A stretch of 64,000 bases of DNA from Leucoraja erinacea (GCF_028641065.1 NC_073403.1:16058001-16122000), one strand, 5' to 3'; positions 25,048 through 61,726 are shown, numbered from the stretch's first letter. A program made the numbers and translations. Notes: a model not told the origin generated them from the letters alone.

Positions 25048-25048
25048 G

Positions 25049-30074: not shown

Positions 30075-30194
30075 GTAAGAAGGAAATAGCGATGTGTTTG
30101 TCCATCGGGTAGAGAGAATAATCTCCTCTGTGGATTTGTTCAGAATCAGCCGCTCCCCTAAGACTCAGGTTTACTTCTCTCTGAGACTTAAAGA

Positions 30195-38658: not shown

Positions 38659-39113
38659 TTTGGACCAATGTTTCCAGCTCTTTACTCTTTCATAAATACC
38701 TTGTAGCACCTTAATTGTACCTTTTTTTGGATCACAGCTACTTTCTGACTTTGTGAAGAGTTGTGATTGTGCATTCTAACAAGGATTTGCTCAGGATGTA
38801 TTTAAGCTCAGTTATGCTAGTTAATACAAGGTAATACAATAGTTAATACAAGGTATCCCTCTCTACCTCCCTTGTAAAGCAGTTGGGATGTTTTACTTTG
38901 CTAAAAATGCTTTCTGGATGCAAGCTGATGCTTTGAGTATCAGAGTTTCCCCCGATGAGTAATCAGTTAAAATAGAAAATCTTTAAAGACAGGCCAAAAG
39001 ACTTCTGAAATTCAAAGAAGTGGAGATGCTGGAAATCTAAAATAATAGTTCATAATACATTTTAGGTGGCCAGGTGTGATTCCGATCTGCGCTGTATCTG
39101 ACATGTGTCTTCA

Positions 39114-39800
39114 TACAATACAATACAATACAATACAATTTATTTGTCATTTGAACCTCATTGAGGTTCAAACAAAATGTTGTTTCTGCAGTCATACACA
39201 CAAGAAAAAGAACCAAGACACAACACAATTTACACAAACATCCATCACAGCGCATCTCCTCCTCGCTGTGATGGAAGGCAAAGTCCTTATCTCTCCCCTG
39301 CACTCCTCATTCTCCTCCCGATGTCAGAGTTAAAGCCCCCGGCGGGCGATGGTAAGTGTCCCGCGGACATTTAAGGCCGCGCCGGGCGATGATGTAAGGC
39401 CCCCCTCCAGGTACTCTTCAACCCCGCAACTCGGGCGGGAGAAGTCGCCGTTGCGGAAGCCCAGAAAAGCGGTCTCCCAGCAGGGACCCGTGGGCTCCCG
39501 GTGTTACCATCCACCAGAACTGCGGTAAGCCTCCGAATCTCCGGGGTCGGGTCGCAGCAGCGCGCCACCCCAGCTCCACCCGCTCCGAACTCGGCCAGCT
39601 CCGCGATGGTGGGTAAGTCCTCAGCTCCGCGATTGGAGCCCCAGGTTGTTCCGGTTAGAGGCCGCTCCACTGTGCTAGGCCCCAACGACAACGGAGACCC
39701 GACAGGGAAAAGGTCGGGTTCTCCGTACAGGGGAAAGATTTTAAAAGTTTCTGCCCCCCACACACATACACAAAAAAAATAAAAATAAAAATGAACCCAA
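39114..39800 (-). repeat. GC-rich interspersed repeat with a (CAATA)n tail
   Basis: Microsatellite at ~39116-39138 followed by a CpG-rich block unrelated to the host intron; family not identified. Confidence 0.5.
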
Positions 39801-40120
39801 GCTTCCAAACAAAGGAATTAGAAATGTTTCATTGTCATTTTTTCCGGCAATGGAACAATGACATTATTACTTGCTGCACCTTAGCAGGCCCATCAACACC
39901 ATAACAGGCAGCTGAATATATAATAATTAGTAATACAATGAATTAATAACTGTAATACTTGGTAAGCAAAAGTGCAAAATCAATGTCCGCATTGGGAAGG
40001 AATATCTGAAGGATTCTGGAAATATTCAGAATGTGACTGCTACTGCAGAAGCTGGTGGAAAAATTCGCCAGACATTACCTGGATACCGAACCGTTTCATT
40101 CCTTTAATTTTGTTTTCTAG

Positions 40121-40233
40121 TTTCTGAGAATTTGACAAAGAAAGAGTTTCATGAGGTGGTGTTTCGAGGAATTAACAAGACGTGCATGTTGAGGGTCTCG
40201 CCGTCTATTAATGGTGAAATTGTGCGCATAAAG
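40121..40233 (+). CDS. IFI35: IFI35 exon (NID2)
   Basis: ISENLTKKEFHEVVFRGINKTCMLRVSPSINGEIVRIK; phase 1-0. Confidence 0.9.
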
Positions 40234-40750
40234 GTATAGAATCTCTTACTTCCTGTTAATTTTGTGGAGGTGATTTTAAAGCAAGTGAAGTTATGCTGCA
40301 TGTGGAAAGCCTGGAGTCACACAGCACAGATACAAGCCCCATGCCAACCAAGATAGCCCAAATTAGATAGTCCCTGAGTATTAACATACAGGTTACGTGC
40401 TAACCAGTCAACAGAAAGACTGTACGTGATTGCAACTGAGCCATCCACCAGTGTACAGATACATAATAAAGGGAATAATGTTTAGTGCAAGATAAAGTCC
40501 GGCAAAGTTAGATTAAAGGTAGTCCATGGTTCTCCAATGAAATAGATAGTAGTTCAGGACCGCTCTCTATTTGTTGATAGGATGACTCATTGGCTGACAA
40601 CAGCTGGGAGAGAAACAAAAGTTACTCCACTCCTGCTATGATATCTAGTCTATTCTTTCCCCTACGAATGTTGCCTGACTTGCTGAATATTTCTGTCATG
40701 TGTTTGTGAACTTATTTACATCTTCTGTTGTATTGTGGTTTTTCCTTCAG

Positions 40751-40951
40751 GCTGGTGAGATTATTTCCAGAAAGAGCGTGCTGTTTTCTGGGATTCCGGA
40801 CATAATAGATGAAGAGAAGCTGAGAGACAATTTGATGATACATTTCCAGAAACCCAGCAACGGAGGTGGGGAGGTGGATGCGATCGTGTACATCCCTGTG
40901 GGGCAAAGCACGATAACTTCCTTTGAGCTAGACAGTGTGGTGGAGATCTGA
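40751..40951 (+). CDS. IFI35: IFI35 last coding exon
   Basis: SRKSVLFSGIPDIIDEEKLRDNLMIHFQKPSNGGGEVDAIVYIPVGQ..* matches the IFI35 C-terminus; the nine exons sum to 1146 nt (381 aa). Confidence 0.95.
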   Translation, partial: AGEIISRKSVLFSGIPDIIDEEKLRDNLMIHFQKPSNGGGEVDAIVYIPVGQSTITSFELDSVVEI

Positions 40952-43900: not shown

Positions 43901-45866
43901 AAGTGCTGGAGGAACTCAGAGGGAATGGACAGACGTTTCGAGTTGGGGCCCTTCTGCAGATTGATTGTAGTAGGGAAAGAGAAGGCTGGAAAAGAGATGA
44001 GGGCGAAACTAGACTTGGCAAGTGATAGATGAATACAGATGAGGGTTTGATTGGCAAATGGGTGGAATAAGAAGCATTTCTGTTCTAAAGATCGCTAAAT
44101 GCATCATCAGTAATCTTTACAGAATCTCATTTCTCTTATATAAGAAATGTTTTCTGCATTTGCTGTTTTGGAAAACAAAACAACAAAAACTGTTAATGCT
44201 AAATCTTAAAATCACAAGATAAAATGCATTTTAAAGACTTTAACATTATCATCAGGTTATTATGAATGATTTTCTAGCAGGATATTGAAAAAAATACAAA
44301 TAACCAGACAATGGCAACGCATTTTTTTATCAAAGGGAAATCATGTTTGATTTCTTTATTTGCTCTCATTGAAGAAGCACCGTGTAGTGGAGAAAGGGGA
44401 ACCAGTAGATGTGATATACTTGGTTTCCAGAAATCAAATCCATGATCTTTGTGAAAATGAAACTATATGGTATAGGAGGTAATGCGTCGGTGTGACTGAA
44501 AAAGTAGCTTTCAACCAGGAAATAGAGGGGCCATAAATGGAGACAAAGTGCTGGATGGGCAGCATCTCTGGGGAACATGGATGGGTGACGTTTTGGGTCA
44601 GGACCCTTCTACGGACTGATTGTAAGGGGGTGGGGGGAACCTGGAAAAGAGGTACAAAATCAGGTAAGTGATAGGTGGATACATGTAATGTATGGAAAAG
44701 CCAGCAATGAAAAGACCAGAAGTGTGAGATAAGGATAGAAGGGGCACGAAATGTGAAGCCAGAGGAAGGAATATAGGTGGAAGGGGATGGGAGGGGAAGG
44801 GAAACGCGAGGAATGTGTGCCCATCCATGTGGAGCACAGGGAAAATGAGGGGACGGGTGTGTGTAGGTTAGTTACCTAAAATTGGAGAATTCAATGTTCA
44901 TACCATTGGGTTGTAACTACCTGAGCAGAATATGAGGTACTGTTCCCCCTGTTTGCATGTGGCCTCACGCTGGCATTAGAGGCCGATGTAACGGAGGCCA
45001 CAACGGGTGCATCCATTGGGGTAGAATAGTTAGAGGTGCAGGTGAACCTGCCTCACATGAAGGGATCGCTGGGGTGGTGGGAGATATGTGCGTTGCACAG
45101 AGGTGGCAAGGGAACTGGGGGGAGAGGGGTTGCTGGTAGGGAAGGTATTACTTGAAATCAGAGAAGTCAGTGTTCTTGCGTTTGGTTGTAAGCTACCCAA
45201 GCGGAATATGAGTAGGAAGGACACAAAATGCTGGAGTAGTTCAATGGGACAAGCAGCATCTCTGGTGACGTTTCGGGTCGAGACCTTTTTTCAGACTGAA
45301 GACATTCCTTCTCTCCAGAGATGCTGCCTGTCCCGCCGAGTTACTCCAGCATTTTGTGTCTTATCTTCGGTGTAAACCAGCATCTGCAGTTCCTTCCTAC
45401 ACACGAATTGGGATGAGGAAGGTGTCTGGAACCGAAACAGCACCCATTCCTTCTCTCCGGAGATGCTGCCTGTCCCGCTGAGTTACTCCAGCATTCTGTG
45501 TCTGTTGCCAAGCGGAATACGAGGTGTCGTTCTTCCAAGACTGTCCCCCAAACGCTCCAGTGATTTCGGCCTCCTCTTGTTCCCCAGGCTGCCCGCAGCG
45601 GTTCAAATTCCGCCAGATTCCCGGGCCAACACTGAGGGTGTTTGGGACCTACGCTGGCGCTGCCGTGCCGGGGAGATGAGCCTGTCCCTGTCCCTGTCCC
45701 TGCCCCTGTCTCTGCAGAGCTGCCTGATGCTCCTTGCCTGCGGTTGCAAAGATGAAGCCCGCGTTACACAGAGAGAGAGAGCCGGAGCTCGGTGTGTCTA
45801 ACCCGGCCAGGTCTAGTCTCTTGCAGCGGGGATCAGACTCAGGGCTGCAGCCAGCCCTGAAATCAG

Positions 45867-45957
45867 ACTTTCACTTTCGATACTGATATATTCGCGGTTG
45901 CGTTTTTTCTTTTCTGTTTCTCCACGGATTCGAGGATGGTTCGGATGGTCGACAAAG
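45867..45957 (+). promoter_or_regulatory. ISRE-containing promoter and putative exon 1 of the RBM43/DTX3L-like gene
   Basis: ACTTTCACTTTC (45867-45878) and TTTCTGTTTC (45911-45920) inside a CpG-rich region (~45590-46540); donor AAAG|GTAAGG at 45958. Confidence 0.6.
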
Positions 45958-48779
45958 GTAAGGGCTCTGGTGTCCGTTTTTAAACCTGGTGGGACTGGCC
46001 GAAAAAGTAAACCCATTGCTAAACCCTTCGGTGGGGCTTTTCTCCGTCGGAAAGGAACGTGTGGGTGGCTACAAAAGAAAAATAAAATGGCAACATCCGC
46101 ATTTATGTAGTCGTAAACATCGCGAGCCTGGTCGACAGCAAGAGACCCCGCTTGTGGGGCTGGAGTTAGTTAGTTTGGATAAACAGCGCACAGGATGAGT
46201 CACCCTGAAACAGAATGTAATGTCGAGGGCTGGGGCCAGCGGAGATGTTCCACTGTGAGGGAGTGTGGCCTCGCTGGGTTAAGCTGTTCCAGAGGCCCGG
46301 GCTAATGCCTTCAGATTGCGCCGTAGCATAGTCTGAAGATTTGAGTCTGGTCGAAGCAACTAGTCGCCAACCCTCAGTGCGTCGCCTCCCAGTCTCCAGG
46401 TCCAGGGGCTGTGGCCGCTCGTCCCGTCTAGGAGTCTAGTCTGGCCCTCTAGGCTAGACTGAGGAAGGTGCCCCCGCCACGGGAGATGTTGAGCTTAGCC
46501 CCGGTTGCATACCGAGTGCAGCTTGGGCCAGCGTTCATCTCTTAACCAAAGCCAGAATTACTTCTTCTTGAGTGGTTCCCTCAGGATTGGAGACGACCAT
46601 TGCCTTCAGGTGGGTTGGGGGCAACTGATAGGGGGAGGAGGGGTCGGCGGACCCTGGCAGAGGTGGGCCAGGTGATGCATCTTTGGGGTGGGATAGGGGA
46701 GGTGTGAGAGGGGGTAGCTCTTTCCACCATTTGCACAGCATATTGTGTGCTGTTGAGGTGTGAGCCCAAGGGTCTAGAGTCATACACACAGAAACAGGCT
46801 GCCCAGCCCAAATGGATCATGCCGACCAAGATGCCCCTTCTCAGCCAGACCCAATTGCCTGCTTTTGGCTCATAGAAACATAGAAAATAAGTGCAGGAGT
46901 AGGCCACTCGAGCCAGCACTGCCATGCAATATGATCATTGTTGATCATCCAAAACCAGTACCCCGTTCCTGCTTTCTCCCCATATCCCTTTAGCCCTTAA
47001 GAACTATATCTAACTCTCTCTTGAATACATCGTATTCCTCACCACTCTGAACCTTTCGTATCTGTGTAAATATATCTTGGGTGCTGTTATCGTACCCGCC
47101 TCAATTATTTCCTCCGTTGGCTGGTTCCATATACCCACAACCCTCTGTGTGATAAAGTTGCCCCCTCAGGTCCCTATTGAATCTTTCCCCTCTCATCTTA
47201 AACCTCGGCCTTCTAGTTCTTATGTCCTCTACATTGGAAAGAAGATGGCTGATTTACAGCTAGACAATTAAATCGCCAAATAAACTGTGTAAGTGCTCCA
47301 AAAAAAGGCAATTTCTAAAGAGAGGAAGTCCTGTTGGTGTTTACAGCAATGCACCTTCCTGAACCTTAACATTCATTGTTCTTTGCTAGAAGCTGGCAGG
47401 CCAGCTATGCATTTCTAATCTTCTACTATGATTATTTATACCTTGGGCATGTTTGGACATGTTCTACTAAAGTCAATGAGACTGATCACATGAAAAATAC
47501 CAGTGCAGGGGAAACACTTCGTACCTGGGTCATTGTAGTAACCTTAGGAATCCTAACAATATATATTGCAGGTACCATATGGTAATTGTGTAGAAAGGAA
47601 CTTGTTGTATTCAGATTATTGTGGACCCTTTTAATTTTTATAGACACTCAATACCAAGCTCCTCATGCTTGTGTGTGCATTCCCTGGTTACTCTATTAAC
47701 AAATGACACAAAGTGTTGGAGTAACTCAGCAGGTCAGGCAGCATTTGAGCAGGACATAGATAGGTGATGCTTTGAGTCAAAGCCCTTTTTCTGATTGATT
47801 GTCCTGGGCGGAAGGAAAACTGGAAGAGATGAGGGCCAGGGCAAAGCATGGCAGATGAGGGGGGTTTCTGATAGGTAGATGGTCGGACAAAGGCCAGAAA
47901 TGAAAAGGATTAAAGAGTCGCGAACTGTGAAATTGGAGGAAGGAATGTAGAAGGGAGGTGAAGTGGAGAGGAGAAATAGGTGTGAACCTAGGTGGGGGCA
48001 CTGGGGAGAGGGGAAAAGGGTTATGTGAGGACCTAAAATTGGAGATTTCATTGCTCATACCATTGAGTTATTGTAAGCTACCCAAAATAAGAGGTGCTGT
48101 TCCTCAAGTTTGTGTGTAGCTTTACTCTGGCAATGGAGGAGGCCTTGGACAAAAAAGGCCAGTATGGGAATGGGAAGAGGACTTAAGGACTTAATAGGGT
48201 TAGCAATCGGGTGATTGGCACCGTTGGGCTGGAAGCTACCGTGGACTGACGAACAAGCTGTCTTGTGATCCTTCTCTCATCGCCAGCGCTTATTATAATA
48301 TTGATCATAAAGTGATCACGAGAGTAATCTGTATCTGGAATGAGCTACCTAAGGACGCTAGAGAAGCGGATGCAATTACGACTTTTAAAAGGCCTTTGGT
48401 TAGATATGTGAATAGGAAAGGTTTAGAGGGCGATGGGCCAAATGCAGACAAATGGCAGCAGCCAAGTATGCCAACTTGGTCAGTATGGACAAGGTGGGCC
48501 GAATGGTCTGTTTCTGCGCTGTACAGCTGTACGACTGTCCCTCGACAAATGTCAGACCCACCCCCAAGCATAGTTCTGGCTGCATGAAACTAAGAGCCTA
48601 AGTTGGATGAAGACAGAAATAGAAAACTTGCCTTCGTATAGTATCCTTCATATCTTATCAACAATCTATTGTGATTTACAGTCAATAACATAGCTTTAAT
48701 GCACAGGTACTGTTGTAAGGAAGGAAATGCAGAATTTGGTGTTTTGAGCTTAAACGATCCTTTTCTGTTGCAGTCTGAA

Positions 48780-48954
48780 ATGGAGAGGAGCGTACACGTG
48801 TCTGACCTCCCCAGAGGCTTTTCAAAGCAGAGCCTCGAAGACAAGCTCATGATTCATTTCTTGCGGACCAAGAACGGAGGAGGTGAAATCATCGACGTGG
48901 TGTTCCCCTCGGAGACACTCTCATCTGCTCTCATCATCTTTGAGGAAGCAGAAG
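48780..48954 (+). CDS. RBM43/DTX3L-like protein, coding exon 1 (RRM/NID-like domain)
   Basis: Acceptor at 48772-48773, gaaATGG; MERSVHVSDLPRGFSKQSLEDKLMIHFLRTKNGGGEIIDVVFP..ALIIFEEAE; donor GTAGGC, phase 1. Confidence 0.9.
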
Positions 48955-50463
48955 GTAGGCTGCAAAATGAAATTCCAGAAATAAAAGGCATGAAAATGCC
49001 AGCCATTCTCTGATGAAGTGAACATAACTTATTCCCAGCCACCCTGTTCCCTGTCCCTCCTTTGTCCTACATTTATTTCCCTTATATTCCCTCTCTATCC
49101 CCTCGCCCCTGTCCCCCTCCCCTCAGTCGCCATCCACCCACACTCCTCTCTCCGGCTTTCCATTTCACTCCTCCTCATCTCTCTTTATGTCTTTTGTCTC
49201 TTTTTCACCTCTAGCTCTTGTGACTTACTCCACCTCATCAACCAACCACCTACCCTCATCTGTACCCACCTATCACTAGCCAGGCTTTGCTTTACCGCAC
49301 TCTCCTTTCCGGCTTTCATCGCCATACTCCCATCTTTCAGAAGAAGGATCCCAACCCAAAACGTCATCGCTCCATTCCCTCCACAGATGGTGCCTGACCT
49401 GCTGAGTTCCTCCAGCACTTTATATTTTCAGGCTCATTCTAGCTTGGAACAAAAGAAGAAATGGAGAGCGGTTCAGTTGTCACTGGCATGGGTTTTGTTG
49501 GGGGTGCTTCATAATGATTTTGCTCCCTGCAATATTCCATAATGCCGTTCATGGCTTGCAGAGTATCCCTTTGTTTCCCATTCCTACCTGCTCCCTCTTT
49601 TTCCAGCCCTTGCCTCCACCACCACCCCTGCCAGTGTGTTTCAACACCCACCACCCTCTGTGTAAAAAACATACTAGGACTATCTCCTTTAAATTTTGCC
49701 CCTCTCACCTTGAAGCTAAGCCCTCCAGTCTGTGACATTTCTATCCTTGGAAAAGGGTTCTGACTGCCTACCCTTCATGTGAAAACACACTCTCTACCCT
49801 CTTTATGGACGATTAGACGTATCTGTGAGGGTAGTGAAGATGACAAAGGCTTGACCCAGGACCTCAGGTGATGCAGGTGAGATTACAGAGAACGAGATTG
49901 GATGCCTTTGTAACATCGAGTCAGAATGTCACTTCAGGGATAAATACGCCATGGATGCAGAAAGTAATCTGGTTCAGTAACAAACACTGGCCAAAGAAAG
50001 GTGTACAGTTGATGATGGAAATTCAAGCAACGTACACAGGGAAACTGACCCACTTGTCTGCAGATGGTTTGTCACACAGCAGGGTTTAGTTTAGCATGGG
50101 GGAATGCCTAATGCAAAGTCACCCACCTACACTCCGGGTTCTAACAGTGCCACCCACCCCACAGGTAATATGAATGGAACCAGGAACGTCCAGCATCTCC
50201 GAAGATCAAGGATAGGTGACATTTTGGATCAGGATCCTTGGTCACAGGGAGAACTTGCAGACTCCACACTGGCAGCACCAGCGGTCATGATTGAACCCAG
50301 GTCTCTAGCACTGCGAGTCTGCATTGCTAACCATTACACCATTGTGCCATCCCAGGTTTTACGTCTTGAGAACTCCTATTGATGGGCCAGATAATGACTG
50401 ACAATGTTAGCGAACATATAAGTCTATGGTCTTAAATATAATCGTTTTGTATTCCTTATTCAG

Positions 50464-50567
50464 TGGCTCAGCGAGTTCTCCAAATTGAAAACCATGTTCT
50501 TGCAATTAACGGGGAACAACACAAGTTAAAAGTGAAGTCCGCTAATACTGTGATCCAAGTTGATCAG
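50464..50567 (+). CDS. RBM43/DTX3L-like protein, coding exon 2
   Basis: VAQRVLQIENHVLAINGEQHKLKVKSANTVIQVDQ; phase 1-0, AG/GTAAAT. Confidence 0.88.
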
Positions 50568-52420
50568 GTAAATGAAAAATTATTGATATATTTCCAAATA
50601 GATTTTCATTTCCATATTTCATGACTATCTTCTAGTTGTGGTCACTAGTGAACTGCCAAGTTAAGGCTAAGATTGGACATGTGTGGTGCACTATACGGTT
50701 CTGAACCATGCTCCTGATGCATTGACAGCAGAGGCTTCAGTAGAAATGTTATACCTGCTTGCAGACAATACCAATTGCTTATTAATTCACCAGAGGATAA
50801 TAGACAATAGGTGCAGGAGTAGGCCACTCGGCCCTTCGAGTGAGCACCGCCATTCAATGTGATCATGGCTGATCATCCCCAATCAGTACCTCATTCCTGC
50901 CTTCTCCCCATATCCTCTGACCGCTATTTTTAAGAGCCCTATCTAGCTCTCTCTTGAAAGTATCCAGGGAACCGGCCTCCACTGCCCTCTGAGGCAGAGA
51001 ATTCCACAGACTCACAACTCTCTGTGAGAAAAAGTGTTCCCTCGTCTCTGTTCTAAATGGCTTACCCCTTATTCTACCACAATAACTGTGTATTTTTAAC
51101 AAATGTACTTAAAAACCTTTGTGAAAAACAACAAGTTTATGAATTGCAACGTGTTCCTGGTTTCTATTGAACAGCAGCTTGTGGGATTAACCTGAGGGTT
51201 CCTGTACAGGCGGCAGGGAAATCTTTTAAAATTTAAGTATTAGGTATGAATGTTGATTCATTTGATAGTGACCGTTTTAAATTTGTTAAATTATTTTTTA
51301 TTGCTGAATTAAAAGGATGACAAAGCATGTCATTTTACATCTTTCCTTGTTGTTAAAATTGTGTCTGTGCCCAGTGTCAAATCTTTACATTTATAATGTA
51401 AACTGGGGTGTAAATTTGTAACACTGATTACGCCCTCCCTCCCATTGAAGTGGCTGGAGTGTGAGATTCTCATGTGAATGGTTTCCATTTTTAAAATGTT
51501 GATATTGCAGTATATTATGCAACAGTCAAATAAAAAAGAGAGTGTATGTTATCAAAATGAAAATGAGTCAGATCAGCCAGCACATTGAATCCAATGATCA
51601 CCCAAACTCTCACCCTGCTTTTATTTAAGGTTTAATACAGTCTTGTCAGCTTGTGCACAGTGTCACGGGGAAAAAAGTTTAAAAAAATGTATTACAAATA
51701 TTTGTAACTATTGTTTACAAGTATTATTATACACAATCACAGACTCTGATATCCCTCTGAAATCCCTCTGACAGCATTAGCACAGTTGTGTGTTTTTCCC
51801 GTTCTCTATAATGGTTTCTGCTTAACCTTTTAACCAAGATATTAATTTTATTTAGGATGGGTCATTTGAATGTATTCATAGAATCATACAGCATAGTTAG
51901 AGATCAATTGGTCCAACTTGTCCATGGGAAAGATACCCCATCCAAGCTAGTCCCATTTACCCCCTATTTGGCTCATGCCCCTCTAAATTTAATCCATGAA
52001 CTTGTTTACATTTATTTTAAATGTTGTTACTGTACCTGCTTCATCTACTTCATATGCTTGTTCCAGATACCCACCTGGGCAAAAAAGGTGCCCCTCAAGT
52101 ACCTAGTAAATTTTTCCACTATCACCTTAAACCCATGACCTATAGTTCTTGATTCCTCTAACTCTGGAGAAAAATAGGTGTTGTTCATTCACTATATCTA
52201 TTCCCCTCATGATTTTATATATTTCTCTAAAATTACCCCTCAGTCCTAGGTTGTTCAATCTCTCCCTATAGCTCAGGCCCTCAAGTCCTGGCAAAATCCT
52301 CATACATCTTCTCTACACACTGTTCTAACTTCATTTTGTTACCAGATTTCATCCATTTAAATAAAACTAAGTTTTCTTTCAAGCTTCAAGTTGTTCACAT
52401 GAATATGATGGCAGATTTGG

Positions 52421-52556
52421 GGTGGGGGATTGGAACCTTCATGTGGTCCGCCCTGTTTCGACGAATGCCAGCAACCTGGTGTGCACAATCAAATAAGATC
52501 AAATAGAACAAGTTGTCCTACAACTTTAGGCTGTGCACGCCATACGCAAGAAGAAG
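52421..52556 (+). mobile_element. ~135-bp short retroposon with (AAG)n tail, copy 2
   Basis: Same sequence as 19477-19610; gatggcagat duplicated at 52407-52416 and 52559-52568. Confidence 0.7.
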
Positions 52557-52762
52557 GAGATGGCAGATATGATAGTGGCATTTAGATAGGCACATGGATA
52601 TACAGGTAATGGTGGGATATGAATCACATGCAGGTAGAAGAGATTGTTTTAGCATGTTCAACAGAGACATTATGGGCCAAAGGGCATGTTCCTGTGCTGT
52701 ATGTTTTAGGTATACTATTTATTTTGGACTCTAACTACTGTTAGTCTTTTATTTGTCATCAG

Positions 52763-55700
52763 GTCATCCCCCATGTTTCCATGACAATAAACTATGGAAA
52801 ACTCTATGGTGGGAGAAGATTAATAAGACAGTTTCAGAAGACGCATAAAGAAATTCACTTTGGTTTTAATCAGAAAGCAGAGCAGTGCACAGTGGCCGGC
52901 CCATTCTCAGCCATTAAGGAACTCAGCGGAGAGATTCATCCATTGCTCAGTTTAAACCCCGACCAAACCAATGTCGACCCCAGTGAAACTCAGCACCAAC
53001 AACACAAGAGCCAAGAAAGTCCGGCCATCGGTCGTTCAAACGGGAATGGGAAAGGTGCCCAGAAATCAAACGCAGGTTCTTACACCAAGGGGGACAATTT
53101 AGAATTGCAAACTAAGGCTGGAATGGAAAGTTCTGTTCATGCAACTGACAGGAAAGGCACTGATGTGCCACGGGACAAAGAGCAACATACAGGCACACTT
53201 CAGGATTACACTTTATTGATGGACTCTGATATTTTTCTGTATATTCTGAAATTTTGTAAAGACAGGTATGAAAGCATCCTGCTCAAATACATTGTGGAGG
53301 TGGTGGATGTCACTGAAGAAGGCATCACCATGGTCTATCTGCATGCAGCCCCTGGCTGTTTGGAGATCGCAACGTCACTGCAGCAGGCACATCAGGAGCT
53401 CTCTTATCTCTACCAAGAGTTTGAATCAATGCTTCGCAAAGAACAGATCGGGAAGGAGAGTCTAACTCATGACGCCAAACTGCTGCAGAACATCTACGTA
53501 AGCATCCAGGCACAATACCCCCAAATAAATTTCAACCAAGACGCAAATTATTTTTACTTAATAGGCACTTTGTATGATTGTTCCCTGGCCAAGAAGTATC
53601 TACAGGATTTGAAGGAGGATCTGGAAGCACGATCTCAGAAAGAAAAAGTTGTGGCATTAGGCAGTGGCCCTGTAAATGACCAGGCTAACACCAGCAATAC
53701 GTCTCACTCTCTGCAAGGATTTAAGGACGTCAGTCAAGTAGTATTTCCAAAGACAAGTGGCAGAAAGGAACACAAATTGGCTACAAACTTCAATGGTAGT
53801 GGTAACGTTGACAGTGCCTTTAAGGCAGGAAGCAGTGTGGCTAAGGACAATTTGGTTCCTAATCCTGACCAGACAGCTGAGCAACTGATGACAGGGTCTA
53901 CTAAGGTGAGAGGTCCACTGGTGCAAACCAGGAGTTGGGAAATGCAGCAAGTTCCACAGGACAGTGCATCCACCAAAGAGGCATTTACTAATGCTGACAA
54001 GGCATTAAGCATTGAAACAGGGCAGTTTGGTGGAAGCAACAAAGAGTCTCATACCAGGAGCAGCAAAGATTTTTCTATGTTGACGGATCAAACCGAGCTA
54101 CTGAGAAATCCTGACAAAACAGGCAGTGACATTTTATTCCAGGGAGGTGGAGATTCTTCCAATCTCTTTACAAATAAAGGACAACAGGACAAAAGTAGCA
54201 AAGGGCGTGGCCCTGTGAAGTCCCACCACTCAGAAACATCAGCAGGGACTCTCTTTCATCAGGGAGACCTGCTGGACACCGTTTCTCCAGCTAAAGGTTC
54301 AGAACGTCAATCCACCAAAACATCTTTGCGAAAAACCAACAGTTTCTCTGGATGCTCAAAATCAAAGCGGTCCGGAGAAGCTGTCCATAAATCCCAGGAA
54401 AAGCCCGCTGAAGTAGGTCAGACTGAAGCAGTGACTGTCACTGAAGAGCTTCTGATAGATTCTGATGTGTGGTCTTATCTGAAAGACATCCATGATGTCA
54501 CCATAAGAGAAATTACAACCAGAAATGTGGTTTTGGTAAATGAGCAACTGCTGGGAGAAACGACAGTGCTGATGTTAACAGCACTGAACAGGGACAATGT
54601 CACAGCTGCCAAGGAGGACATTCTGTCACTTTACACATTGGTCATGAAGCATTTGACCCAACATCGTCTTCCTTACAGAGATCTTGGTATTGAAGAGTGC
54701 ACAGAGAAAACTGTGGAAGAATGGAGGAGCACATTAACAAAAACATTCCCCAAGGTAAAATTCATTGCTTCGCAACGTGGCTTCCATGTTATTGGCACGT
54801 ATGAACATTGCTTGAAGGTGATGGAAGCTGTTAACCCCGAGTTAAGTTCGAGAGCTTTGGAAGACTTGTCCTGGATGGACATTGCGCCCACAAGTTCTAA
54901 TCAGCAAGCGTTACTTGACGATGTTAATGTTCAGGGCACAGAGAGAGAGAACTTCACCCGATCGGCTGATGGTTTCTCATCCTTGGGTCGAGCCAATAGA
55001 CCTGAGGGCATCAACACTCCAGACTTCCACAGGGATGGCCATGAATTGAATTCAAGGCAGGAATATGGCCCATTTATGGATCAGAAGAGATCACCAAAAA
55101 CTCTCGATGAGGGGAATGGTATTGAGTCATTTCTAGACCAGGCTGATTCTAAGGGTCAGAAGACAATCAAGCAGATGGGAGATGTAGAAGGAGTCAAGAC
55201 AAGGAAGACATTACCAGATAAATTCCATCTTACAACCAGTAGGCTAACGAAGGAAGGCCAGTGGTACAATAAGGAGACCAGTTTGCAACGCAATAAGGTG
55301 GATAGTGCAACGCAGTCATTGCCAACGCTTTCTTATGCCGATAGGTCAGCCTGGTCATTGCATCAAAGAAGCAATGGTCAATATATCGCCGATTCTGCTT
55401 TCGATTCCAAAGGCCAAATGCAAGCAAACTATGTGCAGCAACAAAGTGAGAGCAATGAGACAGTGCTGCAAGAAAGCAAGACCATGAGAAACCCTCAGCA
55501 AAGCCAATGCAGAAGTCCAGCTATAGGAATGGATGCACTGGAGCCGGGCGAATCAACATCAGCATGCTACAACTGCAAGAAAATGGGCAAGCCCTCAAAG
55601 CTGGGCTGTGGCCACTTATTGTGCAAGGAATGCCATACAGCCAATCAAAGTTGTCTGATCTGCATTCAAAATGCTGTTGCAAATAAAAATGAAATGCAAC

Positions 55701-55804
55701 GCCAACCTACTATGAAGCTTGCAGTGCTGAATATTCCATTAAGTGGATATAGCAGAGAAATGACCTTGCAAATAATCTACAACATCCCTGATGGTATCCA
55801 ACAG
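52763..55804 (+). CDS. RBM43/DTX3L-like protein, 3042-nt coding exon 3 (KH-like units, disordered linkers, C3HC4 RING, start of DTC)
   Basis: Uninterrupted 1014-codon frame; acceptor at 52761-52762, donor CAG|GTAAGA; RING CYNC..CGHLLCKEC..CLIC at 55565-55663; Deltex motif LSGY..TLQIIYNIPDGIQ. Confidence 0.93.
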
Positions 55805-56171
55805 GTAAGAACTTTATGTAGTTAAGAAGGAATGAGTGCTTGTAGAATCGTAGGTGAAGTATAGGCAATGTTTTATTTTTGTGGAGAAATAAAATGGCGG
55901 TAGGCATGTCAATTATAAATTAAGCTACATCTTTAAACAAATGTTTCCATTAGTATACACGCTATTTAAAAGTACAAAATCAACACTTGTTAAAAATCAA
56001 ATCTTTTATTGAAATAGTATATATAAAACAATTAAAAAAATGTGAAAATCTTGTTTTTACAAAAAAATTAAATCTAGACTAATGGGAGCAGCTACAGTGG
56101 GACATGCTGAATGTTTGAGGAGAGGCATGTGGCTGTGGTAGCAAGGATGGCTGAGACCTTGGTCAAAGCGT

Positions 56172-56320
56172 GGGGGGGGGGGGGGAGGGAGGAGAGGCAG
56201 GGAGAGGGAGGGGAGGGAGGGGGGGGGGGAGAGAGAGAGGGAGGGGGAGAGGGAAGGGAGGGGAAGAGAGTGGGAGGGAGAGGGGGAGGGGGAGAGGGAG
56301 GGGGAGGGGGGGGGGGGGGA
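56172..56320. repeat. G/A low-complexity tract (G-quadruplex/triplex-prone)
   Basis: About 150 nt of almost pure purines with long G runs. Confidence 0.85.
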
Positions 56321-56603
56321 GACTGACTGACTGACGGGCCTGTTTCCATGCTATATGACTCTATGAGACCAACATGCCCTGTACTGAGGCCCTAGTAGTG
56401 CGACAATGTGGAGCAGGATTGCCTTGGACATCCCCGCCATTGAACCAAGATCATGTGTAAGCTGCTATGGCCCGAACCACCTCACGTTCCTGAGCAGTCT
56501 CGTCATCCTCTATTCTCGGCCACAAGGAGGAGGCAAGGAATGGAGGAACAAATTTGCAGATCCTCACTCAGAGTTTTAACCTTTCATTTTTCTTTTTTAA
56601 AAG

Positions 56604-56815
56604 GGGGGTGATCCAAACCCAGGGGAGCCATTTAGAGGAGGGGAGTTTAAAGCCTATTTGCCTGACAATCTCGAAGGAAAGAAGATTTTGATGTTGCTAC
56701 AGAAAGCTTTCGAGACACGCCTGATCTTCAAAGTGGTGTCCGAGTCTAGAAGGCAAGCCTACGTGACATGGAATGACATTCCTCATAAAACAGCCATAAT
56801 GGGAGGTAAAGATAT
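56604..56815 (+). CDS. RBM43/DTX3L-like protein, coding exon 4 (Deltex C-terminal domain)
   Basis: GGDPNPGEPFRGGEFKAYLPDNLEGKKILMLLQKAFETRLIFKV..VTWNDIPHKT..GG, Deltex_C motifs; not in the ORF track; phase 0-2. Confidence 0.93.
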
Positions 56816-56954
56816 GTAAGTCAATTTTGTTTCTCTCAGTTTGATTATTCAAGTGTCAAGAGTGATTTATTGTCACGTGTCCCAGATAGAACAAATAAAT
56901 TCTTATTTGCCGCAGCACAACTGAATATGTAAAGATAGCACACTGTAAACAATA

Positions 56955-58350
56955 TAGAAACATGGAAAAATAGGTGCAGGAGTAGGCCATTAAGCCCTTC
57001 AAACCAGCACCACCATTCAATATGATAATGGATGATCATCTAAAATCAGTACCCCATTCCTGCTTTTCCCCCCCATATCCCTTGACTCCTTTAATCCTAG
57101 GAGCTAAATATAACTCTCTTGAAAAATCCAGTGAATTGGCCTCAACTGCCTTCTGGGTGAAAAGGTTTTTCCTCATCTCAGTCTTAAATGGTCTACCTCT
57201 TATTCTTAAACTGTGACCCCTGGTTCTGGACTCACCCAACATTGGGAACATTTTTCTTGCTTCTCGCCTGTCCAATCCTTTAAGAATTTTATATGTTTCT
57301 ATTCTATAAGAACCCCTCATCCTTCTAAATTTCAGTGAATATAAGCCCAGTCGACACATTCTTTCATCATATGTCAGTCCCGCCATCCCTGGAATTAACC
57401 TGGCGAACCTACGCTGCACTTTCTCAATAGCAATAATGTCCTTCTTCAAATTAGGAGACCAAAATTGCACACAATACTCCAGGTGCGGTTTCACCAGGTC
57501 CCTGTACAACTGCAGTGGGACCTCCTTGCTCCTAAATTCACATCCTCTTGCAATGAAGGCCAACATGCCATTAGTTTTCTTCACTGCCTGCTGTATCTGC
57601 AGGCTTACTGTCAGTGGCTGATGCACAAGCATACCCAGGTCTCGTTGTGCACTATCCCTTTTCCTAATCTGACACCATTCAGATAATAATCTGTCTTCCT
57701 GTTCTTGCCACCAAAGTGCCAACCAGTTCTTCCTGTTCTTGCAACCAAAGTGCCAACCAGTGCCCCCCCCCCAATACCACTTGCTCTAATTTTACACACT
57801 AATCTCTTGTGCGGGACCTTGTCAAAGGCTTTTTGAAAGTCCAGATACACCACATCCATTGGCTCTCCCTTGTTTTACTTGTTACATCCTCAAATAATTC
57901 CAGAAGATTAGCCGAGCATAATTTCCCCTTCAAAAATCCATGCTGAATTAAACCGATCCTGTCACTGGTTTCCAAATGCGCTGCTATATCATCTTTAACA
58001 ATCGACTCAGGCATCTTCCCCCACTACCGATGTAAGGCTAACTGGTCTATAATTCCCCGTTTTCTCTCTCCCTCCTTTCTTAAAAAGTGTGGTTACATTG
58101 GCTACCCTTTTGGAAAATGATCACCAATGCATCCACGATTTCTAGGGCCACCTCCTTGAGTGCTCTGGGATGCAGACCATCAGCACCTGGGGAGTTATCT
58201 GCCTTCAGTCGCAACAGTTTACCTAACACCATTTCCTGACTAATGTGGATTTCCTTCAGTTCCTCCCTCTCACTAGATCCTCGGTCCCTTAGTATCTGGG
58301 AGATTGTTTGTGTCTTCCTTCATGAAGACAGAACCAAAGTACTTGTTTAA
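56955..58350 (-). mobile_element. CR1 LINE, 3' ~1.4 kb, frameshifted
   Basis: QHGFLKGKLC, DVVYLDFQKAFDKVPHKRL (RT), LVKPHLEYCVQFWSP. Confidence 0.9.
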
Positions 58351-60277
58351 TATAATAAACCAGAACAAATCCAATGTATATATAGACACACAAACATAGT
58401 CACACATAAACACACACACACACACACACTGTATATATATGTACACATACTTATGTACACATAAAAAACGAACAACAATAGTGCAATAATAACAATAATA
58501 TTCAATTATTACACCTGTCGGGGCTATAGGAGAAGCCATGATCGGGCTTAGCTTTCTCCATGTTACACTCAAGTCTCACAACCAGACCTTGGTTGGAGAG
58601 CTCTATCTTGCACTAAATGTTATTCCCTTTGTCCTGAATCAGTACACTGGACGGCTTGATTGTAATCATGTATAGTCTGTCCCCAGACTAGATGGCATAA
58701 CAAAAAAACGTTACACTGTATCTTGGTACGTGTGACAATAAACTAAACTAAACTGGAGAGAGAAAGAGTAGATCAATGCTGACAACGACTACATTCCTGC
58801 CAAGTACAGCTACTTGCTACGAACAGAACAATTGAATTTATTTTTAAACCTTTTAATAATTTAAAACAAAAACAAACTAAATGGTTTATGTTCCATTAGT
58901 ACGTGCATTGAAACCGTATCTTGATTTCAAAGTCACATTTTATTTTATCATTGAAAAGACATTTGGCCAGATGTATGGACTGAATGGGTTAGACTGCTAT
59001 GGGGCCAAATACAGTAAAGGGACTAGCCCAATATGTCACCTTAGACACAGTGGGCCAAAGGGCCTGTATCTGTCCCATATAGCTCTCTGTCCCCCATATC
59101 TAAATTGGTACATGAACTCATGTGATGATGTAGGTTTAGAGGACACACAAATATATAAACCAATGTTAATCAAATCCTGATCTCAAAACTTTGGATATAA
59201 CTATTTTTGAACAAATGTATTTTTGTACTGTTCAAGGAGGGATACCATGTATGTGTGGAGAATGCCATTAATTTAGTTTAGTTTAGAGATACAGCCTGAA
59301 ACAGGCCCTTCAGCCCACCGAGTGCACGCTGACCACCGATCCCTCGTTTTCATCAGCTCTATGTTATTCCACTTCTGCATCCACTTCCTACACGCTAGAG
59401 GAAATCCACCGAGACCAATCAACCTACAACTGTGGGTGGGAGGAAACCAGAGCACCTTGAGAAAACCCATGCGATCACAGGGAGAACGCGCAAACTCCAC
59501 ACAGATAGTACCCGAGATCAGGACCAAGCTTGTGTCTCTGGTGCTGTGAAACAGCAGCTGTGCTGCCCCCAAAAGGGTTATGGGTCTTACCTTTTGGCCT
59601 AGAACTTACTCCAGGGTTTGAGGCTGAAGGGATGTAACAGCAGTAAACCACCAGCTGCAGATTTGGACTGGGTTACACTGAACCAGGATCCCTGGCGCTG
59701 TTCCCAATCGTGGTGGGCACCCACACTAGTCTTCTCTGGAGGTCTAAGCAAGATGATCTACAGCACATGTGGGATCTTGGCCCCTGAAAGCTCACAGAAT
59801 GTGGAAATATCTGCTGTTGTCAAGCCTGCTGTTGTTTTATCCACAACACAGTGGTTGTTACAGGCTGTGAAGTGCACTGCAACATCCGGGGCCAAAACCT
59901 ATTCCCAAATCGGCTATGAATCAAAAAAAAATACTGGAACTCGACAACAGGTCAGGTTGCATCTGTGGACAGTGAGAGACGGGTAACAATTTAGGTGGAT
60001 GACCTTTGGAAGCTGGAGTAGATCTGATGTAGAACTGATTGAAGTGTAAAATATGGCTGTGAAAACGAAAGGTTAGCAATTGGTTTAAGGTCAGAGTGAT
60101 TTGAGAACAACAGGAAAGTGGGTGTGAAGTCAACGGGAGCAGGAAATGGATTAATACCATTATTTGAAGGTGTTTGAAATCTTAAATTGTTGGGAGTTGT
60201 GTAGCTCAGTCGAGAACGTTGTAATGTGGGCCAGTAAAAGAGTGGCGTTTAATTTATTTTCACATGTACAGAGTTAC

Positions 60278-60948
60278 ATAGAAACACAGAAAATATTTGC
60301 AGGAGTAGGCCATTCAGCCCTTCGAGCCAGCACCGCCATTCAATATGATCATGGCTGATCATCCAACATCAGTACCCCGTTCTTGCTTTATCCCTCGATT
60401 TTGTAAGCCCCAAGAGCCAAATCTAACCCTCTTGAAAACATCCAGTGAATTAGCCTCCACTGCCTTCTGTGGCAGAGAATTCCCCAGATTCACAACTCTC
60501 TGGGTGAAAAAGTTTTTCCTCATCTCAGTCTGAAATGGCCTACCACTTATTCTTAAACTGTGAGCCCTGGTTCTGGACTCCCCCAACGTTGGGGAACATT
60601 TTCATGCATCTAGCCTGTCCAATCACTTAAGAATTTTATATGTTTTTATAAGATCCCCTCCTATTCGTCTAAATTCCAGTGAATACAAGCCCAGTTGACT
60701 CATTCTTTCATCATATCTCAGTCCCGCCATCCCGGGAATTAACCTGGTGAATTTACACTGCACCTCCTCAAAAGCAAGAATGTCCTTCCTCAAATTAGGA
60801 GTCCAAAACTGCACACAATATTCCAGGTGCAGTTTCACCAGGGCCCTGTACAACTGCAGTTGGACCTCCTTGCTCCTACACTCAAATCCTCTCACAATGC
60901 CATTAGCTTTCTTCATTGCCTGCTGTACATGCGTGCTTACTTTCAGTG
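60278..60948 (-). mobile_element. CR1 LINE 3' fragment
   Basis: LYRALVKLHLEYCVQFWTP and FFTQRVVNLGNSLPQ frames. Confidence 0.85.
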
Positions 60949-61656
60949 TTTCTGGAGCCCCTGGTTAGTGTAAAGCTGTGTTGTATCCTTAATCAAAACT
61001 GTAAATCTCATCAGCTTGATTTCCAGTTATTACCCCTCATCTCCTGATATCATGCATATTACTGCCCCTGAATATTATTGGTAACGTATATGGTGACCAA
61101 AATAAGGGGAAGCAAAGACAGCAAGTGGTTGATAATTAGACCTGGCACCGAGGCTTGGTGTAGACAAGATCAGCTCATTTTCTGCTTGAGTAGCTTACAA
61201 TCCAACGGTATGAACATTGAATTCTCCAACCTTAGTAATACTCCGTCATTCCCATTTGTCCCCCAGCTTCCATCCCACCTGCTGTGCACCCATCTCTCCC
61301 ACCACCCCAGTCACCCCACTCCTTTTCTTTCCATCGCTCCCTGTTCTCACTCTCCCATCCCTGAGACTCATAGTTCTTCTTATCCACATTCCACTTATTT
61401 CCCCACCCCCTCTGGCTTTATATTTCACTGGCTTTATATCTGACACTTTTTGCCCGCTAGCCTTTGATGCTTACTCCATCCATTTGCCAATCAAGCCACC
61501 CATCACTTGCCAGGCTTTCTAACCCCCCTCCCCCCCTCCGTTTCTCCCTCCACAAATGGAGCCTGACATTTCCAGCATCTGTAGTATTTATTTTTCTGCT
61601 TCAATTCTAAGTGTTATCACTTCTAAATAATAATCAGGGACTCTGTTTCTTCACAG

Positions 61657-61726
61657 GAATGGTTATCCCGACACACTCTACTTGAGGAAGGTTTTGTTAG
61701 CTCTGAAGAGCTACGGGCTTCAGTGA
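61657..61726 (+). CDS. RBM43/DTX3L-like protein, last coding exon
   Basis: (M)NGYPDTLYLRKVLLALKSYGLQ*, matching the Deltex terminal GYPDxxYL helix; phase 2 fits; total CDS 3603 nt (1200 aa); AATAAA at 61831 and 62014. Confidence 0.9.

Follow-up and report, generated by a model that had tools for sequence, protein, structure and literature searches.

The gene spanning positions 48780 to 61726 of the analysed stretch of the Leucoraja erinacea genome (64,000 nucleotides of NC_073403.1, hereafter the window) codes for a protein of 1200 aa, which is best explained as a pseudo-Deltex, an interferon-inducible, non-catalytic adaptor whose lineage was disarmed and duplicated. The probability of this reading is put at roughly 0.55. 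Trees and synteny show its historical part, as far as such comparisons reach, and its function would be the one predicted from the domains and motifs described below. The earlier note regarded the gene as unnamed, but its orthologues already bear the placeholder si:busm1-163l24.3 and have the RRM/NID, KH, two KH pairs, RING and DTC. No paper on busm1-163l24.3, dkey-154b15.1 or six gene ids was found in the literature searched by name.

Gene model, leader exon and domain order

In agreement with the earlier note, five phase-compatible exons on the + strand were spliced in frame into a single 1200-aa reading frame starting at ATG 48780, with GT-AG ends at all exon boundaries and intron phases 1, 0, 0 and 2. 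Exon 1 (48774..48954) encodes the first part of the RRM/NID (PF07292, E 2.3e-8) and ends in phase 1, exon 2 (50464..50567) encodes the remainder of the RRM and ends in phase 0, and exon 3 (52763..55804; aa 94-1107) covers a KH domain, KH pair A, a disordered linker, KH pair B, another disordered linker, the RING and the start of the DTC. The DTC core with Phe1122, Trp1163 and Pro1167 is encoded by exon 4 (56604..56815), and exon 5 (61657..61726), with Asn1179 and Ala1193, ends at the stop codon. PolyA-type hexamers are located 3' of the stop at 61830 and 62013.

The full-length relative P0001, a single protein that covers exons 1 to 5 and shares 98% identity across exon 3, came from a single Logan contig of 4346 nt, as compared with the ~13 kb genomic span of the skate gene. 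Among the joints listed, that of exons 3 and 4 was present in contig X1#7, which extends 316 letters past the compared stretch, and a leader (45783-45955) was spliced to exon 1 (48772-48952) in contig X6#17; the RNA origin of both contig sets is a guess. The joints of exons 1-2, 2-3 and 4-5 are supported by P0001 and annotated orthologues. No read-through from IFI35 appeared among the best-supported joints listed, nearly all of them from repeats, with 1055 further joints outside that listing. Exon 3 was covered ~3-8x in the raw RNA run X24, the read and contig evidence being drawn from 4 of 24 runs, and none of the indexed rows containing the gene is on record as RNA. The P0001 contig and the exon joints indicate a single transcript and not separate ones for the 5' and 3' exons.

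The non-coding leader exon lies at 45783..45957 (+) in a CpG-rich stretch (CpG o/e 0.6-0.8) with the donor AAAG/GTAAGG after 45957; its exact 5' end is not defined, and a second contig begins at 45718. Two ISRE-type elements are located inside it, ACTTTCACTTTC (45867..45878, +) and TTTCNNTTTC (45911-45920). The ISRE pattern, picked after the leader site had been seen, matched three times in the 64-kb window versus 0.11 expected (0/100 shuffles). The remaining two matches (24170 and 24543) fall at the presumed 5' end of IFI35 (24170..40951, +), which lies in tandem directly upstream, carries PF07292 matches with the last NID exon ending at 40951, and had its 5' end placed at 24170 on the basis of the ISRE site. 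The pattern was also noted near the 5' ends of the skate PARP14, C1 (DTX3/DTX3L-type) and si:dkey-154b15.1 genes and in the NMI/PARP14-like intergenic region; in the regions read, each of 64-170 kb, its strict form was met 2-5 times, in several cases not at any 5' end, and it had no match at the skate RBM43 locus. According to the accessible part of one report (10.1101/2023.01.06.522985), IFN-alpha induces mouse Rbm43 9-fold; RBM43 has been flagged as a fast-evolving, overlooked immune effector. The skate gene is likewise predicted to be interferon-inducible, the ISRE-type motif being the evidence in skate. A predicted short uORF (MVRMVDKV; 45936..48778, +), read from the sequence, is spliced across the leader intron, a single nucleotide separating its TGA from the main ATG.

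The NID/RRM, KH_DTX3L and DTC domains passed the Pfam cut-offs in the skate protein or P0001, and the AlphaFold model contained an RRM, a KH, two KH pairs, a RING (pLDDT ~65) and a DTC. In Foldseek, the DTC of DTX3L/DTX1/DTX2 ranked first (E 1e-9 to 1e-5), with KH-domain proteins next, none of them better than E 1e-3. The first KH-like domain (52766..52948, +; aa 95-155) lacks the canonical GxxG loop, and PF26774 (KH_I_RBM43) was precomputed at this domain on 20 of 21 homologues. KH-like pair A (53201..53638, +; aa 240-385; PF21718, E 5.5e-10) has its homologue in the C-terminal half of RBM43, and pair B (54431..54838, +; aa 650-785) is a repeat of pair A not present in RBM43. The RRM/NID and the five KH-like folds are without canonical RNA-stacking and GxxG features. 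RNP1, assigned by the RNP consensus, reads ALI/ALL in the skate gene and lamprey versus AYV in RBM43 and si:dkey-154b15.1. Thus, Pfam, AlphaFold and Foldseek bore out the RRM/NID-like N-terminus, KH-like units and DTC of the earlier note, and its C3HC4 RING was recovered by spacing, with no match to Pfam RING models; that note had overlooked the leader exon, KH pair B and the fact that the DTC has lost its active site.

The DTC active site and the RING region

The catalytic His and Glu of Deltex proteins, of which five paralogues have been described, are described as strictly conserved. H707A abolishes and E733A impairs nucleic-acid ubiquitylation by DTX3L (accessible part of PMC11460948), ADP-ribose is contacted by R535, W578, H582 and H594, and the S568A/H582A/H594A mutant was constructed so as to eliminate this binding (accessible part of PMC7442474). 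These positions were compared in 154 family DTCs, which remained from 180 DTC-bearing rows once 24 redundant isoforms or cluster members were removed and two controls set apart; the set is bird-rich and includes same-species isoforms.

The catalytic His (DTX2 H582/DTX3L H707) was kept in none of the 154 DTCs, being Pro in 145, and the catalytic Glu (DTX2 E608/DTX3L E733) was kept in one. Phe occupied the position of Arg535, phosphate-binding in DTX2, in 154/154, and Asn that of H594/Tyr719 in 126/154, with His or Tyr in 7. As many as 146 DTCs retained none of the four pocket residues (Arg535, His707, Tyr719, Glu733) and 8 retained one, whereas all four were intact in the controls, skate C1 and amphioxus DTX3L. 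In the skate protein the replacements are Phe1122 for DTX2 Arg535 (56646-56648, +), Pro1167 for His582/His707 (56781-56783, +) and, in exon 5, Asn1179 for His594/Tyr719 and Ala1193 for Glu608/Glu733. The fold itself was conserved, 39 of 127 columns reaching at least 90%; the adenine-stacking Trp (DTX2 W578; Trp1163 in skate) was retained in 151/154, as was each of W, H, K and T of the WxxIPHKT motif. The skate protein therefore has the C-terminal DTC of a Deltex protein (PF18102, 123.5 bits on P0001; Foldseek 3pg6, E 8e-10) without the catalytic His/Glu or the complete R535/W578/H594 set of ADP-ribose pocket side chains.

The degenerate C3HC4 RING (55565..55663, +; aa 1028-1060) has the ligand spacing of a RING but Asn1030 at the position of DTX2 Ile414, a residue mutated along with Tyr425 in order to eliminate the binding of E2~Ub (accessible part of PMC7442474), so the E2-binding hydrophobic residue of Deltex RINGs is not there; the canonical linchpin is already absent from Deltex RINGs (PMC7615817). 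A complete C3HC4 pattern was found in 25/154 proteins, including those of skate, coelacanth, amphibians and lamprey, and in these the Ile414-equivalent (third CxxC residue) was Q, N, S, R, A, Y, G or E and never I/L/V/M/F. The pattern was incomplete in the other 129, and most of the RING is gone from the models of chimaera, stingray and manta, which retain the DTC. No Pfam RING model matched the RING region of skate, chicken or lamprey, the skate C1 RING scoring 39.5 bits. The full set of zinc ligands in sharks, amphibians and lamprey and the 7-11 Cys kept in many birds and fish suggest that the region is under some selection, and it could still work with an unusual E2. Judged by these residues, the Deltex module of the family is catalytically disarmed, lamprey included. 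Outside this module, conserved linker motifs were present in 111-120 of the 154 family proteins, among them LR[RK]xNSFS (54326..54349, +; 116/154), whose S620 is a candidate phosphosite.

Relationship to RBM43 and the mirrored gene blocks

The first ~370 aa had been said to follow RBM43, and this was upheld: a profile of eight tetrapod RBM43s matched the skate N-terminus in one stretch across the whole folded RBM43 region (136 bits, E 7.6e-41, positions 2-306 of 309). The same profile gave 20.6 bits for the skate DTX3/DTX3L-type gene, below 10 for four skate PARP14-type pieces and 51-63 bits for IFI35/NMI, through the RRM only. An Atlas search also returned RBM43 as the top matches (0.90). These scores and the AU test (p=0.02) place the N-terminus with RBM43 and not with DTX3L or PARP14. 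The two proteins share the order RRM/NID, KH, KH pair, and in skate the first two introns lie at equal protein positions with phases 1 and 0. RBM43 differs in stopping within the large exon, in lacking KH pair B, RING and DTC, in retaining the RNP1 Tyr and in being present in mammals. IFI35 and NMI, neighbours in both blocks and among the PDB matches of the skate gene, share the RRM-type NID motif F..KNGGGE, but have a coiled coil and repeated NIDs and no KH, RING or DTC.

A separate skate RBM43 (exons of 193/95/1140 nt, phases 1 and 0, the same motifs; 475 aa) adjoins NMI; a search of the skate genome with aa 94-379 alone missed it and a shark RBM43 query found it. The order and orientation NMI-RBM43-RND3 on C7 mirror IFI35-gene-RND2 on C27, as the earlier note expected, and both chromosomes carry Hox9 genes; the RND names are presumed from neighbourhood and recall. 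Each gene thus has an NID gene ahead of it in tandem and an RND gene after it, on a chromosome that bears Hox genes, and several gene pairs in paralogous blocks support ohnology. STAT, a further paralogy marker that was sought, turned up only on C27 and C40 and was not found on C7.

The N-terminal tree (39 chosen rows of 124, linkers removed) placed the skate gene and RBM43 in separate clades (100/99 and 99/97), with si:dkey-154b15.1 as the sister of RBM43. The latter, held by sharks, bony fish, lungfish, coelacanth and a caecilian, is a third paralogue with RRM-KH-KH pair and, unlike the skate gene, without RING-DTC; the skate copy on C49 ends after the first KH. Each of the three clades holds sharks and bony vertebrates. 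An exclusive pairing of RBM43 with the skate gene was rejected (p=0.002). The proposed RBM43 ohnology stands by the separate skate RBM43, the matching introns and the mirrored blocks, with si:dkey-154b15.1 as the closest paralogue of RBM43. The two lamprey genes were placed next to the skate family with support of no more than 91/90, and a tree in which the three paralogues of jawed vertebrates form a clade that excludes lampreys was not rejected (p=0.128), so more than one order of duplications is compatible with these data. Searches for a DTC remnant found none (best E 0.014) in the sequence following skate RBM43, around the C49 gene or in the PARP14-PARP9 interval. An NID match on C4 was rejected as an RBM43 paralogue, as it sits among RBR/IBR exons.

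Orthologues of the gene were found from sharks to birds and the lamprey homologue keeps RING-DTC. No full-length mammalian homologue appeared in two homology searches; going by this absence, mammals have apparently lost the full-length copy, as had been claimed. P0117, the other lamprey gene, has no DTC and neither do some of the lizard models, so DTC losses may have been several. A frog gene model fuses IFI35 to the orthologue; complex prediction without alignments for frog IFI35 NID region (aa 128-373) and orthologue aa 1-160 scored 0.00 and speaks neither for nor against contact.

Before the split of lampreys and jawed vertebrates, the active site would have disappeared from the DTC of an RRM-KH-RING-DTC gene with the DTX3/DTX3L exon plan. 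The block of NID gene, skate gene and RND would have been duplicated when the Hox chromosomes were, with the disarmed RING-DTC retained in the copy behind IFI35 and lost in the RBM43 plus si:dkey-154b15.1 lineage, most simply once; the full-length copy was later lost in mammals, apparently. Since the RING-DTC was already disarmed in lamprey, the suggestion that RBM43 is a truncated DTX3L-like protein holds for the truncation of a RING-DTC gene, but the source was a pseudo-Deltex and not a working DTX3L.

Alternative readings and meaning

That the gene is a diverged DTX3L orthologue of sharks and rays is very unlikely. It shares with DTX3L/DTX3 the order RRM, KH-like, RING, DTC, the DTC fold and a five-exon plan, the positions of the three 3' introns being those of the skate C1 gene (3' exons of 3042/212/70 versus 1287/218/70 nt), which also has an ISRE-type element at its 5' end; human DTX3L is the best PDB match of the DTC, and one quail model is named DTX3L-like. 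However, the C1 gene has an intact RING and catalytic residues and matches human DTX3L better (101.7 bits for 70 aa of its DTC versus 95.2 for the whole skate gene protein). With skate C1 and amphioxus as the DTX3L comparators, the skate and lamprey DTCs formed their own long-branch clade (100/99), and grouping the family with the DTX3/DTX3L-type gene was rejected for the N-terminus (AU p=0.02; that row has a long branch). The skate gene also differs in its replaced catalytic His/Glu, phosphate-binding Arg and adenine-stacking His/Tyr, degenerate RING, long disordered linkers and locus. No DTX3L ORF was found in the skate PARP14-PARP9 interval, which is explained by a DTX3L-PARP9 linkage reported to postdate lungfish (accessible part of 10.64898/2026.04.23.720386). 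No RRM exons were found in 41 kb upstream of the C1 gene, which may lack an RRM and may be either DTX3 or DTX3L.

It is rather unlikely that the protein is a brake or decoy for DTX3L/PARP9/PARP14 or NMI/IFI35 complexes, a narrower form of the scaffold reading, acting through its NID or KH-like domains to dampen ADP-ribose-ubiquitin signalling in the way that inactive PARP9 is a partner of DTX3L. The exon plan, domain order and ISRE pattern shared with the DTX3/DTX3L-type gene fit this, as do the NID gene directly ahead in both ohnologous blocks, the frog fusion model and the protein contacts mediated by KH-like domains of PARP9/DTX3L and PARP14, DTX3L D2 being oligomeric (accessible parts of PMC11080071 and PMC10955461); but linkage may mean shared regulation only, and the invariant Phe and new Pro suggest a new ligand over an emptied site. 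An active RING E3 for protein lysines, as in the automatic UniProt name, with the rebuilt DTC picking a protein substrate, is unlikely: eight zinc ligands in C3HC4 spacing in 25/154, the predicted RING-like fold and the adjacency of RING and DTC agree with it, against the non-hydrophobic Ile414-equivalent, the failure of 129/154 and the lack of a Pfam RING match. Homology to RBM43 across the whole folded length, the reported repression of PGC1-alpha mRNA translation by RBM43 (in the accessible part of the source) and the adenine-stacking Trp kept in 151/154 would suit an RNA-binding translational regulator whose DTC reads ADP-ribose or nucleic acid 3' ends without catalysis; with Arg535, His582 and His594 all replaced, and an RRM and KH folds lacking the RNP1 aromatic of RBM43 and GxxG, this is distinctly unlikely.

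According to the preferred pseudo-Deltex reading, IRF/ISGF3 would act at the leader-exon ISRE and induce the gene together with IFI35. Protein docking or oligomerisation would be the main role of the RRM/NID and the five KH-like folds, and the short conserved linker motifs may recruit partners or be phosphorylated. The DTC fold would be kept with a pocket rebuilt by the invariant Phe, near-invariant Pro and mostly Asn for a non-ADP-ribose ligand, probably a peptide, and neither ADP-ribose nor the ends of nucleic acids would receive ubiquitin from it. PARP9 offers a functional analogy only, as an interferon-induced, ADP-ribosylation-inactive partner in the same pathway (accessible part of PMC13224862); its C-terminal domain is unrelated.

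Neither the preprint on DTX3L evolution nor the PARP14 review names RBM43 in its main text, and papers listed as pairing RBM43 with DTX3L, PARP14 or NMI and IFI35 are expression, association and selection studies. Database labels for the family include E3 ligase (the automatic UniProt name) and IFI35 isoforms, so avian IFI35 expression data can be confounded. Chicken (LOC121106446), duck and teleosts have an intact copy, which makes direct testing possible. The family provides a natural inactive DTC for comparison with DTX3L, hinting at a second ligand or role for this domain, and a counter-example lineage to the strictly conserved His/Glu, with the fold kept and the residues gone in nearly all 154. 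For RBM43, it supplies an origin and maps the domains as RRM/NID plus three KH-like folds, a map that predicts ties to the DTX3L/PARP14/NMI/IFI35 network; given the disarmed Deltex end of the family, which was found from lampreys to birds but not in mammals, RBM43 looks like a truncated remnant of a disarmed Deltex protein. Tentatively, the family may be a sixth vertebrate Deltex lineage, a ~500-million-year pseudo-ligase with a pocket rebuilt before lampreys, which would act as an interferon-induced ADP-ribose/ubiquitin regulator in fish, amphibians, reptiles and birds; mammals would keep only the truncated cousin RBM43, possibly a DTX3L-type docking module in the NMI/IFI35/PARP14 network more than an RNA-binding protein.

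Gene structure, transcript and regulatory sites

The spliced genomic sequence confirmed the earlier note's reading of five exons encoding one 1200-aa protein from the ATG at 48780, all introns being GT-AG with phases 1, 0, 0 and 2. The full-length relative P0001, encoded by a single 4346-nt Logan contig, contained exons 1–5 within one protein and was 98% identical to the skate gene across exon 3. Contig joints were read from four of the 24 listed runs, over window positions 40700–60690. Contig X1#7 had exon 3 spliced to exon 4, followed by 316 more letters beyond the stretch, and in contig X6#17 positions 45783–45955 were spliced to exon 1; this segment is therefore a non-coding leader exon, the donor of which lies after 45957. 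Runs X1, X5 and X6 were assigned as RNA by guess only, but the intron-skipping joints in the X1 and X6 contigs are the pattern expected from a spliced transcript. Raw RNA reads of run X24 covered exon 3 at a depth of about 3–8x. An upstream ORF (45936–48778), whose stop ends one base 5' of the main ATG, was also noticed and could tune translation.

The leader exon sits within a CpG-rich stretch and carries the ISRE-type element ACTTTCACTTTC at 45867. The pattern ASTTTCASTTTC, picked only after this site had been noticed, occurred three times in the window versus 0.11 expected, with the remaining two matches at the presumed IFI35 5' end. Skate PARP14, NMI/PARP14-like, the DTX3/DTX3L-type gene on C1 and the si:dkey-154b15.1 orthologue on C49 each had the strict ISRE pattern close to the 5' end, with further matches elsewhere too; none was found at skate RBM43.

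Pfam matches in the protein comprised NID/RRM, KH_DTX3L and DTC. AlphaFold (19-row alignment, P0001 numbering) predicted an RRM (1–80), a KH domain (90–150), KH pairs (235–383 and 643–780) and a RING (about 1021–1055, pLDDT about 65) followed by the DTC, with long disordered linkers between the domains. Foldseek searches with this model ranked Deltex DTC structures top and KH proteins next, at E 1e-3 or weaker.

Kinship with RBM43 and Deltex proteins

The N-terminus follows RBM43, as had been claimed, scoring 136 bits on a profile of eight tetrapod RBM43s, on which IFI35-type proteins reached 51–63 bits, the C1 gene 20.6 bits and PARP14 pieces less than 10. An Atlas search with aa 1–380 ranked RBM43 clusters top. 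The introns of skate RBM43 (C7:67,435,611-67,445,195; 475 aa) interrupt the protein at the same motifs and in the same phases, and RBM43 terminates within its large exon. The proposed synteny mirror was seen within skate: C27 carries RUNDC1, RPL27, IFI35, the gene, VAT1 (opposite strand) and RND2, and C7 carries NMI, RBM43 and, 436 kb further, an RND gene, with a Hox9 gene on each chromosome. Upstream of IFI35 lie the last RUNDC1 exon (window 144–1016; RUN domain, Pfam) and the RPL27 exons (11435–17388), in the order of human 17q21.31; the names RPL27, VAT1, RND2, RND3, PARP9 and PARP14 are presumptive, given from motifs and Pfam matches.

The C7 cluster consists of PARP14-like, NMI and RBM43 genes. 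The second PARP14-like gene (RRM, KH, macro and PARP exons; C7:67,480,229-67,532,352 (+), L062-L082) is head to head with NMI, and the 12-mer ISRE of the leader exon recurs between them at 67,477,418. A NID/RRM exon was also noticed among RBR-type exons (IBR Pfam match; C4:51,506,181-51,521,438 (+), L025-L027) presumably resembling RNF31; this locus may encode a NID-containing RBR E3 ligase, and 51,502,930 is the position of its ISRE-type site.

The N-terminal tree (39 rows) resolved three jawed-vertebrate clades, the gene's family (100/99), RBM43 (99/97) and si:dkey-154b15.1 (100/98), the latter two being sisters (96/89), with two lamprey genes near the gene's family (91/90). All of these were separated, on long branches, from skate C1, amphioxus and hemichordate sequences (96/94). 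RBM43 and the gene's family as sisters were rejected by the AU test (p = 0.002), and a clade of the three jawed-vertebrate paralogues without lampreys was not (p = 0.128). RBM43 thus stands as a paralogue by homology and synteny but not as the direct sister, si:dkey-154b15.1 being nearer to it. Lamprey P0122 has an RRM, three KH pairs, RING and DTC, and the C1 gene shares three 3' introns with the gene, which argues that RING-DTC is ancestral and RBM43 truncated, most simply by a single loss common to si:dkey-154b15.1.

The second lamprey gene, P0117 (proteins P0117/P0199), has an RRM and three KH pairs with no DTC match, and some lizard models (P0077, P0104) end ahead of the DTC; the C-terminal module may have been lost more than once, or the models may be misannotated. 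In the 280-aa Mobula isoform X4 (P0022), RRM-KH is joined straight to the exon 4 DTC via an early donor in exon 3. The C49 gene (C49:925,705-941,760 (-), L031-L032), preceded at a distance of about 10 kb by tandem ISRE-type sites, adjoins a class I myosin gene. The third exon of the C49 gene ends after the first KH domain, versus a 468-aa bamboo shark protein, and the gene product may be truncated.

Orthology to DTX3L is very improbable. The AU test rejected the gene's family with C1 on the N-terminus (p = 0.02), and in the DTC tree the family and lamprey formed a long branch (100/99) away from C1, amphioxus and two skate DTX1/2/4-type genes, the trees being built without named tetrapod DTX3 or DTX3L. 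The skate has a separate gene with an intact RING (Pfam 39.5 bits) on C1 (45,545,350-45,560,830 (-), L046-L048), encoding KH, a KH pair, RING and a DTC with active-site residues, 70 aa of which scored 101.7 bits on human DTX3L; true DTX3L orthology, which would have refuted the earlier note's reading, was not borne out. The RING linchpin of C1 is Gly, as reported for DTX3, tandem ISRE-type sites lie 2.3 kb upstream of its large exon, and no RRM exon was found for it; if it is DTX3, skate DTX3 retains KH domains. Amphioxus P0068, of DTX3L type, has three RRMs, KH, a macro domain, RING and a DTC with the active site intact. Skate PARP14 lies in head-to-head orientation with PARP9 (C7:50,638,972-50,735,000, L068-L078). 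No DTX3L was found between them, in agreement with the dating of the DTX3L-PARP9 linkage to after lungfish in the preprint 10.64898/2026.04.23.720386.

Distribution and naming

The 21 homologues of exon 3, all uncharacterised proteins and several named si:busm1-163l24.3, came from sharks, rays, chimaera, coelacanth, gar and caecilians. A tetrapod-weighted profile search returned 154 proteins, the best 120 of which came from birds, turtles, gharial, lizards, tuatara, amphibians, coelacanth and sharks and included no named mammal; nine unnamed rows of that listing were 74–89% identical to bird or newt rows. Other searches added teleosts, paddlefish and lungfish. In a 124-row tree, the family's amniote members were limited to tuatara, three lizards and a chicken-like pair. 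The claimed loss of the full-length gene in mammals is thus likely, resting on absence.

Family models in chicken, two other birds and one frog are labelled IFI35. In the frog model, P0324, IFI35 and the gene's protein form one fusion, which places IFI35 directly upstream in frog and suggests the same in birds. The gene carries placeholder names and automatic E3 labels, and newer Pfam families tie it to RBM43 by profile (PF26774 on 20 of the 21 homologues, PF28453 on two). In the open literature searched, no paper on the gene was found and, judged by listings, none on a common ancestry of RBM43 with Deltex, PARP14 or NMI/IFI35. The gene is real, conserved and undescribed.

The RING-DTC module and its proposed role

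Alignment to DTX2 and DTX3L (DTX2 numbers counted from Trp578) placed Phe1122 at DTX2 Arg535, Pro1167 at His582 (DTX3L His707), Asn1179 at His594 (Tyr719) and Ala1193 at Glu608 (Glu733). The DTX2 and DTX3L residues at these positions either bind ADP-ribose or make up the catalytic pair (PMC7442474, PMC7615817, PMC11460948). The family set of 154 DTCs (180 rows minus 24 redundant, with two controls apart) is bird-rich, includes some isoforms and ranges from lamprey to birds. The catalytic His was present in 0/154 and Glu in 1/154, the pocket Arg in 0/154, every member having Phe there, and His/Tyr594 in 7/154; none of the four residues remained in 146, and both controls retained all four. The adjacent Trp, His, Lys and Thr were each kept in 151/154, which argues that the DTC fold is under selection.

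The protein would be a non-catalytic scaffold (probability about 0.55). The putatively ISRE-driven gene beside IFI35 would yield a long adaptor, whose RRM lacks the RNP1 aromatic kept by RBM43 (by the RNP consensus) and whose KH folds show no GxxG. Its linkers contain conserved short motifs (LR[RK]xNSFS in 116, [KR]LAxxF in 115 and LPDKF in 114 of 154 members), and its DTC pocket would have been rebuilt rather than decayed. Those same RRM and KH features, with the altered pocket, make a reader of RNA or ADP-ribose improbable. Residual lysine E3 activity is only slightly less doubtful: a full RING pattern persists in 25/154, none of these having I/L/V/M/F at the Ile414 position, and many of the others are Cys-rich remnants. 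A specific decoy of DTX3L/PARP or NMI/IFI35 complexes is somewhat less unlikely than either.

The earlier note was right that the gene retains RING-DTC, but not as a working DTX3L-like module, the pocket residues being replaced and the RING degenerate. Since the pocket loss extends from lamprey through to birds, it predates the lamprey split, and the RING-DTC shed by RBM43 was, as judged from sequence, already a pseudo-DTC.
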